A stretch of 64,000 nucleotides of DNA from NCBI RefSeq assembly GCF_057098645.1, contig NZ_CM169472.1. The stretch is one strand, 5' to 3'. Made by a program: the position numbers. Below are positions 44,057-64,000 of this stretch, piece after piece (position 1 is the stretch's first letter; the number at the start of each line of letters is the position of its first letter).

Positions 44057-47000
44057 TAAACTCGTATCAGTGCCGGATGGCGATGCTGTCCGGCCTGCTT
44101 ATTAAGATTATCCGCTTTTTATTTTTTCACTTTACCTCCCCTCCCCCGCTGGTTTATTTAATGTTTACCCCCATAACCACATAATCGCGTTACACTATTT
44201 TAATAATTAAGACAGGGAGAAATAAAAATGCGCGTACTGGTTGTTGAAGACAATGCGTTGTTACGTCACCACCTTAAAGTTCAGATTCAGGATGCTGGTC
44301 ATCAGGTCGATGATGCAGAAGATGCCAAAGAAGCCGATTATTATCTCAATGAACATTTACCGGATATTGCGATTGTCGATCTCGGATTGCCAGACGAGGA
44401 CGGTCTGTCACTGATTCGCCGCTGGCGTAGCAATGATGTTTCACTGCCGATTCTGGTATTAACCGCCCGTGAAAGCTGGCAGGACAAAGTCGAAGTATTA
44501 AGTGCCGGTGCTGATGATTACGTGACTAAACCGTTTCATATTGAAGAGGTGATGGCGCGAATGCAGGCATTAATGCGGCGTAATAGCGGCCTGGCTTCAC
44601 AGGTCATTTCGCTCCCCCCGTTTCAGGTTGATCTCTCTCGCCGTGAATTATCTATTAATGACGAAGTGATCAAACTGACCGCGTTCGAATACACCATTAT
44701 GGAAACGTTGATACGCAATAATGGCAAAGTGGTGAGCAAAGATTCGTTAATGCTCCAACTCTATCCGGATGCGGAGCTGCGGGAAAGCCATACCATTGAT
44801 GTACTGATGGGACGTCTGCGCAAAAAAATTCAGGCACAATATCCCCAAGAAGTGATTACCACCGTTCGCGGCCAGGGCTATCTGTTCGAATTGCGCTGAT
44901 GAAAAAATTACTGCGTCTTTTTTTCCCGCTCTCGCTGCGGGTACGTTTTCTGTTGGCAACGGCAGCGGTAGTACTGGTGCTTTCGCTTGCCTACGGAATG
45001 GTCGCGCTGATCGGTTATAGCGTCAGTTTCGATAAAACTACGTTTCGGCTGTTACGTGGCGAGAGCAATCTGTTCTATACCCTTGCGAAGTGGGAAAACA
45101 ATAAGTTGCATGTCGAGTTACCCGAAAATATCGACAAGCAAAGCCCCACCATGACGCTAATTTATGATGAGAACGGGCAGCTTTTATGGGCGCAACGTGA
45201 CGTGCCCTGGCTGATGAAGATGATCCAGCCTGACTGGCTGAAATCGAATGGTTTTCATGAAATTGAAGCGGATGTTAACGATACCAGCCTCTTGCTGAGT
45301 GGAGATCATTCGATACAGCAACAGTTGCAGGAAGTGCGGGAAGATGATGACGACGCGGAGATGACCCACTCGGTGGCGGTAAACGTCTACCCGGCAACAT
45401 CGCGGATGCCAAAGTTAACCATTGTGGTGGTGGATACCATTCCGGTGGAGCTAAAAAGTTCCTATATGGTCTGGAGCTGGTTTATCTATGTGCTCTCAGC
45501 CAATCTGCTGTTAGTGATCCCGCTGCTGTGGGTCGCCGCCTGGTGGAGTTTACGCCCCATCGAAGCCCTGGCAAAAGAAGTCCGCGAACTGGAAGAACAT
45601 AACCGCGAATTGCTCAATCCAGCCACAACGCGAGAACTGACCAGTCTGGTACGAAACCTGAACCGATTGTTAAAAAGCGAACGCGAACGTTACGACAAAT
45701 ACCGTACAACGCTCACCGACCTGACCCATAGTCTGAAAACGCCACTGGCGGTGCTGCAAAGTACGCTGCGTTCTCTGCGTAGTGAAAAGATGAGCGTCAG
45801 TGATGCTGAACCGGTAATGCTGGAGCAAATCAGCCGCATTTCACAGCAAATTGGCTACTACCTGCATCGTGCCAGTATGCGCGGCGGGACATTGCTCAGC
45901 CGCGAGCTGCATCCGGTCGCCCCACTGCTGGACAATCTCACCTCGGCGCTGAACAAAGTGTATCAACGCAAAGGGGTCAATATCTCTCTCGATATTTCGC
46001 CAGAGATCAGCTTTGTCGGTGAGCAGAACGATTTTGTCGAGGTGATGGGCAATGTGCTGGATAATGCCTGTAAATATTGCCTCGAGTTTGTCGAAATTTC
46101 TGCAAGGCAAACCGACGAGCATCTCTATATTGTGGTCGAGGATGATGGACCCGGTATTCCATTAAGCAAGCGAGAGGTCATTTTCGACCGTGGTCAACGG
46201 GTTGATACTTTACGCCCTGGGCAAGGTGTGGGGCTGGCGGTAGCCCGCGAAATCACCGAGCAATATGAGGGTAAAATCGTCGCCGGAGAGTGCATGCTGG
46301 GCGGTGCGCGGATGGAGGTGATTTTTGGTCGCCAGCATTCTGCGCCGAAAGATGAATAAATATGTCCTTTTATCACTATACCAAGTCAAGTCATTGATTT
46401 AATTAAACAATTATCATTGAAAAAGTGCCAAAAATCGCAAATTGACTACACCATTAACTACACCGTTCGGTGCACTGTATGAAACAACGTGGAACAAATA
46501 GACACAAGAAATATACAGGCGGGTAATCTTTCCAGGGGGAAGCGCACCAATTCATGAGGGGCGTTAATGTCGATATGGGGATCCCCATAACGGGGCTACC
46601 GGATTTTTTTTCCGGTTAACATTTAATCAGGCTGGTGGGTTTTACATACCCTTGATCACCGTAATGATGATCCAGATGTGCACCTTTTCCACCAATGGCG
46701 GAAAAGCTCCAACCGTAACGATGATCGCTATGGTTGCCTCGATGGTCTGCGTGGTCATTATGACCATTCAGCCAGTGACCTTAATCAGAATTTTTCGCTA
46801 AAAAATGACGTTGGCCACGTCATCCTGATAGCACAAAATCACGTCGATTTTTAATGAACGGTTAAACCGTCTTTTTGTCACGGTGTGTCACTGGTTGTCA
46901 CTCTCCGTCACGATTGAGGTGGTGGTCATTCTGCCCGACCGCGCATTTTTGCGCTATCGGGAATATAAAACAGTTACCGCCGTCAGCTACCCAGCTCAGA

Positions 47001-62000: not shown

Positions 62001-64000
62001 ACGCAATAGCTGATGCTGTAGAAAATTTAAAGGAAGATGGCGAAAGTACAGGGCAATTTATCGTTTCGGCACTTGAAGGCGAGATCAAACGCCGCCAGCG
62101 CCGCAAGGCCAAAGAATCAGAATAATCACTATCAGCGCCGTGGTGTGAGGTATTACGGCGCATTGCTATGCAGGACAACACAATGACCGATAAAGAATTG
62201 ACCAAAACATTATCACCGGCACGGAAAAGACGGCGCAGAAAGATAGAGCATGAATCAGAAAGATTCGCGCCATGTGCTTTTGCCCTTGAGCAATTCCTTA
62301 AAGAATACAGGGAAAAGCGCTCATTGCAGGTATGGCAACGAACTGAACCAGACTGATTGCATTGCCCACCAGCCTGATAGCGGCTATCATCCCCGTGCTT
62401 ATGTTTGGGATCACACACACAAACGGCGCAGCGGGTTATCTGTTCAGAAAGGCGGCTCCATTTCGGGGCCGCTTTTTTTATGCCTGAAAAACCCCAATTT
62501 TGTGGTTTTCCAGTCTCACCAGGGCGAACGAATCCCCGCCCACGTTCTGGCGTATATTCAATCTTCATGGTTATAGCTCTGTGTTCAGATGATTGATGTG
62601 TGGCGGCTGTGTGCCGCCAGCGTGATTAATGAACTGCCTTGCAGCTATCCTTCCAGGCCAGAACCTCGGATAAAGACCAGCCAACGGAACGACCGCCAAG
62701 TTTACGACGTGATGGGAATTGTCCGGCCTTTTCCAGGCGGTAGCGACACGTACGGCTAAGGCCGGTTAGTTTTTCGCATTCTTTTTCACGTATAAACCGA
62801 TCAGTGCTTAACACTATTGCCCCCTTTCGTTTCTTAAAGAGTTATTTCGTGTTCTATTGCGTTGAGATGTGTCTGATTGTGTCAGGATGATTCAGAGTTG
62901 GCAAATGTTGAGGCCGTATGGTTTACAGAAAGAGGAATAATCAGGATAAAATCATTTAAATTCATGTTAATACAAAGACATAAAATATTGTTTCATGCCT
63001 TTTTTCTCGCTATTTAAAGAGTGATTCGCTAGTGTATAAAAAACCAGTGACACATTAAAAATCAGCTACTTATAAATCTGTACACTTTTTCGCCTCTTGT
63101 TCGTAGTTGTTCCGCATTGTTGCTCATTGTTGCACGTTGTATCTGTTCGCATATCCAGTATGCGCATACTGAAAAAATACGAAAAAAATTATTTTCTTCT
63201 GGCTACTGGTAGCGTGGTTACGTTTTCATGTGTTCCCGCCAGTATCCCTAACCGCTCCATCCACATATCCAGCGCATTGCGTTTAGCATCCAGATAACGG
63301 GAATGATTATAAACTCGCTGCATTCCTGGCATCTGGTGGCCTGTAAGCTGCTCCACGACATGCGGATCAACGCCTAAATCGTTCAGCATGGTTGTAAAGG
63401 TGCGCCGGATGTCATGCAGTGACCAGTGAGGATGATTAAGCCTCCTGTGCGCTAATCTTCCATACTGCGATACGCTGGCCTCCTGTTTCACTTCCCCCAG
63501 CAATAAGCCCGTGTGCCTGTTCTGCTCCACCAGCTGCGTGACGAACGGCAGGATCGCTTCCGGTATGGGCCGGAATATTGCGACCTTCGTTTTGCTGTGC
63601 TCCTTCGGAACGGTCCATAGCATTTCCGTAAAATCCCACTCCCCGATCTCCGATAGCCTCAGTTCTACCGTCCTGGCTCCGAAGACAATCAGGAGGCGGA
63701 TTAACGCGACGTAGTAAGGGGAAAATATTTTTTTGTCCAGTGCCTGCAATAATTCGCCAAGTTCTTTGTTACTTAAGACACGTTCGCTTATATCCGGTTT
63801 TTTCCCAACGTCCGCCACGTTCAGATCGTCCAGAACGTTGCTGATTGCATAGCGCCGCCTACGGCAGAACTTAAGCGCCTGTTTGCACGCCTGTAGCACG
63901 AATCCGGCAGTAACAGGCGTTCGCTTTGCCACCTGGTCAAAACAGGCCAGCCAGTGCCGTAGCTCGCATTTATCCAGCGGCATAGCACCAATCTGCTGTA

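Follow-up and report, generated by a model that had tools for sequence, protein, structure and literature searches.

What is the island that begins beside phoQ in an E. coli chromosome whose flanking sequence matches O145:H28 strains, and could it still move? We analysed one window, a stretch of 64,000 nucleotides in which the island runs from position 46368 to beyond 64000, and called its genes by searching the window ORFs against PHROGs, Pfam and NCBIfam. Judged by its gene content, the island is a tail-less, capsid-forming phage satellite (cf-PICI), and it is of an already known kind: because its head genes are almost identical to those of the published, experimentally characterised prototype EcCIEDL933, the element is not novel. 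Our joint reading, which we hold with a probability of roughly 88%, is that of an EcCIEDL933-lineage cf-PICI that is a single-crossover chimera, carries two insertion sequences (ISs) and is probably locked in place after an inversion.

Gene content and kinship

An initial annotation had described a satellite able to assemble an HK97-type capsid of its own and to fill it with its own DNA, with no tail, baseplate or lysis genes after terL, and this description holds. All the gene classes that it listed, from integrase to terL, were recovered on the minus strand by profile searches (Table 1), and no ORF in 46368-64000 matched a tail, baseplate, holin or endolysin family in PHROGs. The gene order, capsid-protease-portal-connectors and then hnh-terS-terL, is that of proteobacterial cf-PICIs (10.1101/2022.09.08.507074, section 9), and, size apart, the island has every cf-PICI trait that sequence can reveal among those listed by He et al. 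2025 (Methods, 'Identification of cf-PICI candidates', 10.1101/2025.02.11.637232) and SatelliteFinder (PMC10085698). Its length, with the left end outside the window, is predicted at ~18.2 kb with both ISs and ~14.1 kb without them, and cf-PICIs measure ~10-18 kb.

Table 1 Features of the island and its phoQ-side boundary, in window coordinates
Feature	Position	Strand	Evidence or remark
attR core AAATATGTCC	46358..46367		overlaps phoQ stop codon; element starts ~46368
Candidate integrase arm-type repeats GACTACACC ATT AACTACACC	46444..46464	+	putative function
93-aa ORF, conserved at end of PICIs and cf-PICIs	47026..47307	-	phrog_1561, E = 2e-55; 92% identical to EcCIEDL933 homologue
Large terminase TerL, chimeric between two parents	47321..48982	-	phrog_9, E = 4e-178; 98.4% identical to EcCIEDL933 TerL
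Crossover interval, phoQ-site parent (lower coordinates) / tqsA-site parent (higher)	48615..48802		informative sites, mismatch bins
Small terminase TerS (P27/Terminase_4 type)	48966..49322	-	phrog_83, E = 3e-39; 100% identical to EcCIEDL933 TerS
Candidate cos region, G+C-rich, between 60-aa ORF and terS	49323..49444		putative position
60-aa ORF between HNH and terS	49445..49627	-	phrog_3173; 100% identical in EcCIEDL933
HNH endonuclease, terminase's packaging partner	49611..50051	-	phrog_144, E = 1e-44; 98.6% identical to EcCIEDL933
Head-tail connector/adaptor (Phage_connect_1)	50051..50347	-	phrog_40, E = 5e-36; 99% identical to EcCIEDL933
Head closure protein (Phage_HCP)	50344..50682	-	phrog_25, E = 1e-34; 96.4% identical to EcCIEDL933
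Portal protein	50679..51890	-	phrog_12, E = 3e-116; 99.5% identical to EcCIEDL933
HK97-family prohead protease	51892..52464	-	phrog_80, E = 5e-68; 99.5% identical to EcCIEDL933
Major capsid protein (HK97 fold)	52504..53661	-	phrog_10, E = 7e-89
PerC-family regulator	53950..54222	-	phrog_994 and phrog_10396; 89% identical to EcCIEDL933 PerC
Single-stranded DNA-binding protein (SSB)	54233..54643	-	phrog_44, E = 1e-39; 97.8% identical to EcCIEDL933
Iteron cluster, candidate replication origin	54903..55093		six CCTCACTTTT-type repeats (<=1 mismatch), one inverted
Replication initiator/helicase (RepA family, AAA_25), intact, 466 aa	55092..56492	-	PF13481, E = 5e-43; phrog_2850, E = 1e-266
ISSso4-family IS21 (istA, istB), 2,639 bp	56516..59154	-	7-bp target duplication CGTTAAC at 56509-56515 and 59155-59161
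DUF4222 gene, C-terminal codons replaced by IS sequence	59155..59434	-	phrog_285; homologues annotated DUF4222/PF13973
Two small conserved ORFs, 77 aa and 73 aa	59440..59896	-	phrog_2196 and phrog_24341; stretch 100% identical to L018/L032
ISEc20-family IS110, 1,449 bp	59903..61351	+	transposase 60130-61326
Icd-like cell-division-inhibitor homologue	61554..61751	-	NCBIfam NF033153, 64.6 bits vs cutoff 25
263-aa protein downstream of alpA, variable region of cf-PICIs	61777..62568	-	no family match (NCBIfam, PHROGs)
AlpA regulator/excisionase	62626..62814	-	PF05930, E = 6e-17; 100% identical to EcCIEDL933 AlpA
Tyrosine integrase, C-terminal 269 aa, cut by window end	63189..64000	-	phrog_1; predicted start ~64418

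The closest published element is EcCIEDL933, the prototype cf-PICI of E. coli O157:H7 EDL933 (Alqurainy et al., 10.1101/2022.09.08.507074), whose structure is available as PDB 9GYI (He et al., 10.1101/2025.02.11.637232). The island's nine packaging-module proteins are 96-100% identical to those of the prototype, its major capsid protein matches 9GYI at 382 of 385 residues, and the capsid, protease, portal, HNH, TerS and TerL ORFs are all full length. Conservation extends to the DNA from HNH to terS, including the candidate cos region (mean column identity of 98% in an alignment of four elements); cos sites are where packaging of cf-PICIs starts (10.1101/2025.02.11.637232). By gene numbering, the 60-aa ORF in this stretch is probably 'gene 1792', mutation of which severely cut transfer. 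EcCIEDL933 sits at the roxA/phoQ site in EDL933 and has the island's phoQ-side att core and gene order, but it differs in its replication protein (a 710-aa DUF927 protein, compared to the island's 466-aa RepA/AAA_25 helicase), in the gene after alpA (65% identical) and in Int (96%); it is also non-chimeric, free of the two ISs and shorter (15.46 kb compared to ~18.2 kb).

That the island could instead be an HK97-like prophage that has decayed by losing its tail and lysis modules, and no satellite at all, is scarcely credible. HK97-type head genes and resident ISs would fit such a history, but tail or lysis remnants and pseudogenes are absent from the window, the int-alpA-rep module is of PICI type and the prototype was experimentally shown to be a satellite. 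Intact relatives are bounded by conserved att repeats 15.5-16.4 kb apart, and 360 of 5,426 complete E. coli genomes carry the capsid gene, every inspected relative being equally compact in architecture. Tail or lysis genes just beyond the integrase would have pointed to an ordinary prophage; in all inspected relatives the integrase directly abuts a chromosomal gene (int-roxA or int-tqsA). A known complete phage as the source of the head genes is equally at odds with the searches: among 50,697 phage records, and one 106-kb Klebsiella record aside, no complete phage has head genes above ~40% amino-acid identity, and the matches at 58-66% are satellite-sized records (15-16.5 kb), a 3.8-kb fragment and the last 4 kb of the Klebsiella record. 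With phage HK97 the island has in common an HK97-fold capsid, an S78 prohead protease, a portal and the HNH-TerS-TerL logic of cos packaging, whereas its capsid is at most ~40% identical to those of complete phages, its gene order is capsid-protease-portal and it has no tail or lysis genes; heads of the cf-PICI prototype are T=4, compared to T=7 in HK97.

We also compared the island with other classes of mobile element. A complete HK97-like temperate prophage does not fit, as the window contains no tail, lysis or immunity modules; nor does a classical PICI in the SatelliteFinder model (PMC10085698), in which the portal, connector and head-closure genes found here are forbidden. The full head module and the lack of sid, psu and delta PHROGs matches among the ORFs speak against a P4-like satellite; what such satellites have in common with the island is limited to integrase type, AlpA and the Icd-like gene. 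A classical, non-capsid-forming PICI in O145:H28 strain RM12581 uses the same roxA/phoQ attachment site and is close to the island in rep-SSB-PerC (99.5% identical), int-alpA (95%) and the chromosomal flank (almost identical). It differs in carrying a Phage_cap_E-type capsid-like gene, a head decoration gene and a Nu1-type TerS, without the full module of capsid, protease, portal, connector, HNH and TerL.

The switch inside terL

Two groups of cf-PICI match different parts of the island. From 44000, upstream of the island itself, to 48614 the window matches phoQ-site cf-PICIs (L020, L021 and L026), found in genomes with an identical PhoQ S465C protein; mismatches number 0-2 per 500 bp over the stretch that runs from phoQ past attR and orf93 into the 3' part of terL, to 48500. 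From terS to PerC, these elements differ at 4-15 positions per 500 bp, and there the island follows the other type. From 48803 to 64000, ISs excluded, it matches cf-PICIs integrated at tqsA (L018, GCA_029361185.1; L032, GCA_032290885.1; L001, strain 14EC001), with 0-1 mismatch per 500 bp over 49500-64000, a span that covers rep, the small-ORF cluster, the 263-aa gene, alpA and int. The tqsA-site elements are flanked by mdtJ-tqsA' and 'tqsA-pntB, have no IS at the island's positions and diverge from the island at the 3' end of terL, in orf93 and in the right arm, by 13-32 mismatches per 500 bp and with ends that are not homologous. One assembly of the same lineage holds a tqsA cf-PICI that is 100% identical to the island over 59155-59902 and 61352-64000.

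The 96 informative sites change parent a single time, in terL: up to 48614, 62 of 63 agree with L020, whereas from 48803 onward 33 of 33 agree with L032. On this evidence, together with an Int C-terminus and a 263-aa protein of tqsA-site type and a TerL unmatched in the protein index, the island arose by recombination between two resident satellites joined by a single crossover, with the terL 3' part, orf93 and attR traced to a phoQ-site cf-PICI and everything from the terL 5' part through int to a tqsA-site cf-PICI.

A long gene-conversion tract, or a misjoin between two near-identical 13-kb repeats, would yield the same window sequence, and the two have to be weighed against the crossover. 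In the former case, a conversion tract or double crossover that exchanged most of a phoQ/roxA-site cf-PICI for tqsA-site sequence would have made the chimera without an inversion, leaving roxA beyond the window. We consider this possible but unlikely: the two elements share ~13 kb at 97-99% identity as a substrate, and satellites of this group are mosaic, with rep, int and post-alpA modules varying between relatives, but the 17.6 kb hold one switch only, and tqsA-type sequence continues, ISs aside, for at least 11 kb as far as the edge of the window, with 0-1 mismatch per 500 bp. A second breakpoint would thus be confined to the last ~600 bp (int N-terminus and arm), where the two types are only ~77-81% alike. 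Still less probable is an assembly artefact in which two resident cf-PICI copies were misjoined and the true phoQ-site element is ordinary and non-chimeric. Inverted ~13-kb repeats at 98-99% identity are a classic cause of misjoins, the protein index searched contains no exact copy of the chimeric TerL, and the chimeric 951-bp stretch occurs in no other public record searched; against this, the switch is clean and single, and the assembly places five multi-copy IS elements of the window in their context, which suggests long-read or finished data.

Insertion sequences, boundaries and mobility

Whereas the initial annotation placed all genes on one strand, the ISEc20 transposase lies on the plus strand; the two ISs, which together make up 23% of the island span, had been overlooked, as had the chimera and the probable tqsA-type far flank. 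The ISSso4-type element inserted 23 bp upstream of the rep ATG, within the 3' end of the DUF4222 gene, at a site that is uninterrupted in L001, L018 and L032; as it is co-oriented with rep, read-through could still express rep. ISEc20 is a clean insertion ~6 bp upstream of the 73-aa ORF, in the early operon and opposite in orientation to the island genes, with flanks identical to L018 and L032 (748 of 748 and 2649 of 2649 positions).

On the phoQ side, the att 10-mer AAATATGTCC also brackets L002 and EcCIEDL933, two intact relatives, on either side, and the empty site in K-12 reads AAATATGCCC. The repeat pair GACTACACC / AACTACACC recurs beside int at the opposite end of L002 and L001. The short ORF proposed after terL is real, and the non-coding DNA of about 650 bp described before phoQ measures 666 bp and gave no match in PHROGs, PADLOC or Rfam.

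The gene after phoQ in K-12 is indeed roxA, as the initial annotation stated, and the island had accordingly been placed between the two. The phoQ side of that placement stands; the roxA side is probably wrong, because the integrase half is of tqsA-site type. We infer that the far flank is more likely tqsA-pntB than roxA, reached by an inversion between two satellites, because the island is a phoQ-site/tqsA-site chimera: with the parents in inverted orientation on a K-12-like backbone, the crossover most likely inverted the ~0.5-Mb phoQ-tqsA segment. Beyond 64000 one would then expect the rest of int followed by tqsA-pntB, with no roxA, and the hybrid would carry a phoQ-type attR with a tqsA-type attL and Int. 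How the phoQ and tqsA loci are oriented to each other differs from one complete genome to another, so that the parental arrangement in the source strain is an assumption. The left end (int N-terminus, attL and flanking gene) falls beyond the window, which makes the inversion, the att mismatch and the length of ~18.2 kb predictions.

The island copy is probably immobile, locked in place and non-transferable even though its head and packaging ORFs are intact, because it would have to fit ~18.2 kb into the same T=4 head that holds 15.5 kb in the prototype, and because its att sites are probably mismatched. This packaging-length argument (118%) is borrowed from lambda-type cos phages, whose limit may not apply to the T=4 head. 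A functional, transferable cf-PICI despite ISs and hybrid ends is improbable: the head and packaging ORFs, alpA, rep and int as far as it is visible show no truncation and are 96-100% identical to their counterparts in functional or intact relatives, and ISSso4 runs with rep, but, besides the excess length, ISEc20 is anti-oriented in the early operon, and the elements from which Int and attR derive integrate at different sites and have different cores.

Replication genes and the prototype's mechanism

For the gene initially called a primase/helicase, Pfam detects a helicase domain (AAA_25) and no primase domain; the N-terminal 130 aa of its product match primase-annotated proteins in PHROGs alone. 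It differs from L018 and L032 by 0-1 mismatches per 500 bp. Iterons beside rep had been noted correctly; the cluster lies directly downstream of it, and CCTCACTTTT has only 3 matches elsewhere in the 64 kb. The relative L002 has another rep allele with matching, different iterons (GCCCACTTTTT). A terminator-like hairpin follows the PerC gene (53943-53926).

The prototype is induced in an alpA-dependent manner, makes its own small capsids and depends on tails (10.1101/2022.09.08.507074, sections 5-7), and its T=4 capsid holds 15.5 kb with cos ends (10.1101/2025.02.11.637232). Carried over to this island by near-identity (96-100% at the protein level), the mechanism would begin with a helper phage turning on alpA, upon which the tyrosine integrase would excise the island and the RepA-type helicase and SSB would replicate it from the iteron origin. 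Expression of capsid, protease and portal would yield small T=4 heads of HK97 fold, HNH, TerS and TerL would cleave the island's DNA at the island's own cos site and load it into the heads, and the connector and head-closure proteins would attach tails supplied by a siphovirus such as HK106.

At the integrase end, the Int C-terminus is identical at 269 of 269 residues to the tqsA-site Int of L001 (409 aa at full length) and at 258 of 269 to that of EcCIEDL933, on whose full-length protein, 96% identical to the part in the window, Arm-DNA-bind_3 and Phage_integrase domains were found. The exact 263-aa protein encoded downstream of alpA belongs to tqsA-site satellites in 10 of the 10 contexts listed.

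A capsid-forming island of known lineage

By combining an ORF listing with profile searches, we recovered almost every gene that the initial annotation had named between phoQ and the end of the window, and its reading of the region as tail-less was borne out, with 0 ORF matches to tail, baseplate, holin or endolysin families over the same interval. The identity of AlpA was confirmed with Pfam, and the iterons proposed beside rep, the RepA/AAA_25 helicase gene, correspond to six CCTCACTTTT-type repeats in 190 bp directly downstream of it; elsewhere in the 64 kb, three matches lie scattered. 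In agreement with the initial annotation, roxA directly follows phoQ in K-12. The satellite span had been read without insertion sequences and with all genes on one strand; two IS elements lie within it, and because the ISEc20-family transposase is encoded on the plus strand, the second statement does not hold.

Features of the window, with protein identities to EcCIEDL933
Feature	Coordinates	Strand	Identity to EcCIEDL933 or remark
Leucine-rich-repeat gene (478 aa)	4587-6023		between cvrA and dadX
IS3-family element	18520-19828
IS2	20812-22141
IS5-family element	32226-33415
phoQ	44899-46359		flanks the satellite
GTCAC array	46877-46913		between orf93 and attR
Packaging end: 93-aa ORF (orf93)	47026-47307	minus
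Packaging end: TerL, HNH		minus	98-99.5%
Packaging end: TerS, 60-aa ORF		minus	100%
Head genes: head-tail connector, portal, prohead protease, major capsid protein		minus	98-99.5%
Head genes: head closure		minus	96%
Hairpin	52473-52494	minus	between capsid and protease genes
27-bp stretch at gap edges	53922-53948
Middle genes: PerC-family regulator, SSB, 83-aa ORF		minus
Replication side: RepA/AAA_25 helicase (rep)	55092-56492	minus	466 aa
ISSso4-family IS21 element	56516-59154		target duplication CGTTAAC (7 bp)
Replication side: DUF4222 gene, small ORFs		minus
ISEc20-family IS110 element	59903-61351	plus (transposase)
Non-coding leader of ISEc20 (227 bp)	59903-60129
Int end: Icd-like gene, 263-aa ORF		minus
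Int end: AlpA		minus	100%
Int end: tyrosine integrase, C-terminal 269 residues		minus	96% (visible part)

The interpretation as a capsid-forming phage-inducible chromosomal island (cf-PICI) was right, and the element is already known: EDL933 (O157:H7) carries a 15.46-kb element of exactly this architecture between roxA and phoQ, which is EcCIEDL933, the prototype of these islands. EcCIEDL933 is induced only with alpA and a helper phage, assembles small capsids of its own and borrows nothing but tails from that phage; single mutations in its packaging-module genes abolished transfer, with one exception, hypothetical gene 1792, where transfer was severely reduced (10.1101/2022.09.08.507074). Its T=4 capsid is 47.5 nm across with a content of 15.5 kb (10.1101/2025.02.11.637232), and 382 of 385 residues in the window capsid protein are identical to PDB entry 9GYI. 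Whereas the head and packaging proteins are nearly the same, the replication protein is of the 466-aa RepA type in the window and of a 710-aa DUF927 type in the prototype, the two sharing only their N-terminal 125 residues (67% identity); the gene after alpA is 65% identical, and the IS elements also set the window copy apart.

The alternative of a decayed prophage, to which tail or lysis genes beyond int or head genes in a complete phage would have pointed, is rejected because relatives end at chromosomal genes and no complete phage among 50,697 phage records carries the head genes. In EcCIEDL933 and L002, an intact phoQ-site relative, the stretch between phoQ and roxA opens with the att core and closes with an int that abuts roxA, and nothing else intervenes; tqsA-site relatives abut tqsA-pntB. 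In those phage records, capsid identity to true phages is at most 40%; the capsid matches that reach 58-66% amino-acid identity come from two ‘phages’ of satellite size (15-16.5 kb), from a 3.8-kb fragment and from the terminal part of one 106-kb Klebsiella record. Annotation should assign the region to the EcCIEDL933 lineage of cf-PICIs and should not call it a defective prophage.

According to SatelliteFinder, 13% of Enterobacteriaceae genomes have a cf-PICI (PMC10085698). Within a set of 5,426 complete E. coli genomes, 357-360 (about 7%) carry the capsid gene at 95% identity or more, and 166 contain the phoQ/terL junction. The discovery value is small, as cf-PICIs, described in 2022-2023, are known, the prototype sits at the same locus and the capsid gene is widespread. 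PhoQ in the window differs from K-12 by S465C; contigs with the identical protein (L020-L027, L006) have an empty site after phoQ, a classical PICI or a cf-PICI, and which satellite occupies the roxA/phoQ site, if any, therefore changes within a single lineage.

Several smaller features accompany these genes. The four GTCAC motifs in non-coding DNA between orf93 and attR, at 10-bp spacing (TTGTCACGGTGTGTCACTGGTTGTCACTCTCCGTCACG), are also kept in L002 and look like a protein-binding site. The hairpin between the capsid and protease genes is strong and terminator-like, and may act as an attenuator through which the capsid gene is expressed more strongly than the genes downstream. A 225-bp hypothetical gene between PerC and the capsid gene is present in EcCIEDL933, RM12581 (an O145:H28 strain with a classical PICI at this site) and L001, the tqsA-site cf-PICI of strain 14EC001, and is missing in the window and L002, where the alignment looks like natural presence/absence variation; the 27-bp stretch of the window aligns with the sequence on either side of the gap against L005 8611-8937. 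NCBIfam gave 0 matches for AlpA, orf93, the 263-aa protein and the 60-aa ORF, Rfam at gathering thresholds had no hit in 46000-64000, and PADLOC detected no defence gene when applied to the uncharacterised ORFs and to rep and PerC.

Two parents and a switch inside terL

The visible integrase is identical to that of L001 over 269 of 269 residues, versus only 258 of 269 for EcCIEDL933. This allele occurs at 99% identity or more in 126 genomes and lies away from phoQ in both strains where we compared both loci; among the matches listed for the identical 263-aa protein, 10 of 10 contigs carry it in tqsA-site satellites. Window positions 44000-48500 show 0-2 mismatches per 500 bp to phoQ-site cf-PICIs (L020, L021 and L026), and 49500-64000, with IS excluded, 0-1 per 500 bp to tqsA-site cf-PICIs (L018 and L032); each parent in the other's territory reaches 4-32 mismatches per 500-bp bin. 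The 96 informative sites switch once, being phoQ-type at 62 of 63 up to 48614 and tqsA-type at 33 of 33 from 48803, which places the crossover at 48615-48802, inside terL. By sequence comparison, the satellite is a clean two-parent chimera. The exact window TerL protein is on no record in an exact-protein look-up, consistent with a crossover inside terL, and the chimeric 951-bp terL/terS stretch has no 100% match in the 5,426 complete E. coli genomes (best 99.2%).

A candidate inversion between phoQ and tqsA

How the chimera arose can be set against the orientation of its parents. With the loci arranged as in K-12, the element at phoQ reads int to terL and the one at tqsA terL to int, which makes the pair inverted repeats of about 13 kb; a single reciprocal crossover within terL would invert the segment between them, leaving phoQ, a phoQ-type attR and the 3' part of terL followed by tqsA-type sequence through int. 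This is exactly the order in the window. We favour, with a probability of about 0.55, the reading that the window spans one junction of a terminus-spanning phoQ-tqsA inversion of roughly 0.5 Mb on the K-12 scale, in which two resident cf-PICIs would have undergone homologous recombination in terL and the resulting hybrid att ends would lock the satellite; tqsA-pntB, not roxA, is then predicted after the integrase. That a single inverting crossover made the chimera, assuming a K-12-like parental arrangement, seems to us slightly better than an even bet.

A distinctly weaker candidate is a long conversion tract, which would have to stop within the final 600 bp or so, a part over which the two parents are only some 80% alike; an assembly misjoin is improbable. 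The classical PICI of RM12581 with a swapped packaging module is rejected: the int side is 100% identical to tqsA-site cf-PICIs versus 91-95% to RM12581. The complete genomes of strains 2313 (L038) and O145:H28 12E115 (L039) agree neither with K-12 nor with one another in the relative orientation and order of tqsA and phoQ; large inversions are therefore frequent in this terminus-proximal region of Shiga-toxin-type E. coli, and one between these loci is plausible. If the phoQ-tqsA inversion is real, phage satellites would serve as portable repeats through which the host genome is rearranged and chromosome structure shaped, a role known for prophages in Shiga-toxin-producing E. coli, and a satellite would have been domesticated through mismatched att sites. 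It would be relevant to genome plasticity in these strains, though unsurprising.

Insertion sequences and the state of the window copy

Every head and packaging ORF is intact, as are alpA and rep, and IS DNA makes up 23% of the satellite span. The ISSso4-family element, inserted 23 bp before the start codon of rep, stands between rep and the early operon, inside which ISEc20 is anti-oriented. The predicted length of about 18.2 kb is 118% of the content of the prototype's near-identical T=4 capsid. The integrase, and probably attL, do not share the integration specificity of attR (cores TGCTGTTAT and AAATATGTCC), and fusion of a phoQ-type attR with a tqsA-type Int and attL (core TGCTGTTAT) would lock the hybrid in the chromosome. 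Because of this probable mismatch, its predicted oversize and the IS placement in the early operon, the window copy is probably immobile, and its annotation should mark it as IS-disrupted and chimeric. The new details, namely two IS insertions, a two-parent chimera and a probable inversion junction, are of local interest only.

L001 had first suggested that a deletion accompanied the ISEc20 insertion, which we reject as L018 and L032 show a clean insertion; its position is 6 bp ahead of a small ORF. The leader upstream of its transposase (IS110-family, RNA-guided type by NCBIfam) had no Rfam match, and an exact-protein look-up found no record of the IS-junction DUF4222 variant. With the three chromosomal elements, none at matching positions in RM12581, the 64-kb window holds five IS and is unusually IS-rich. 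The leucine-rich-repeat gene, whole in the window, is broken by an IS3-family element in RM12581; its product weakly resembles type III effectors (SlrP, SspH2, EspK/GogB).
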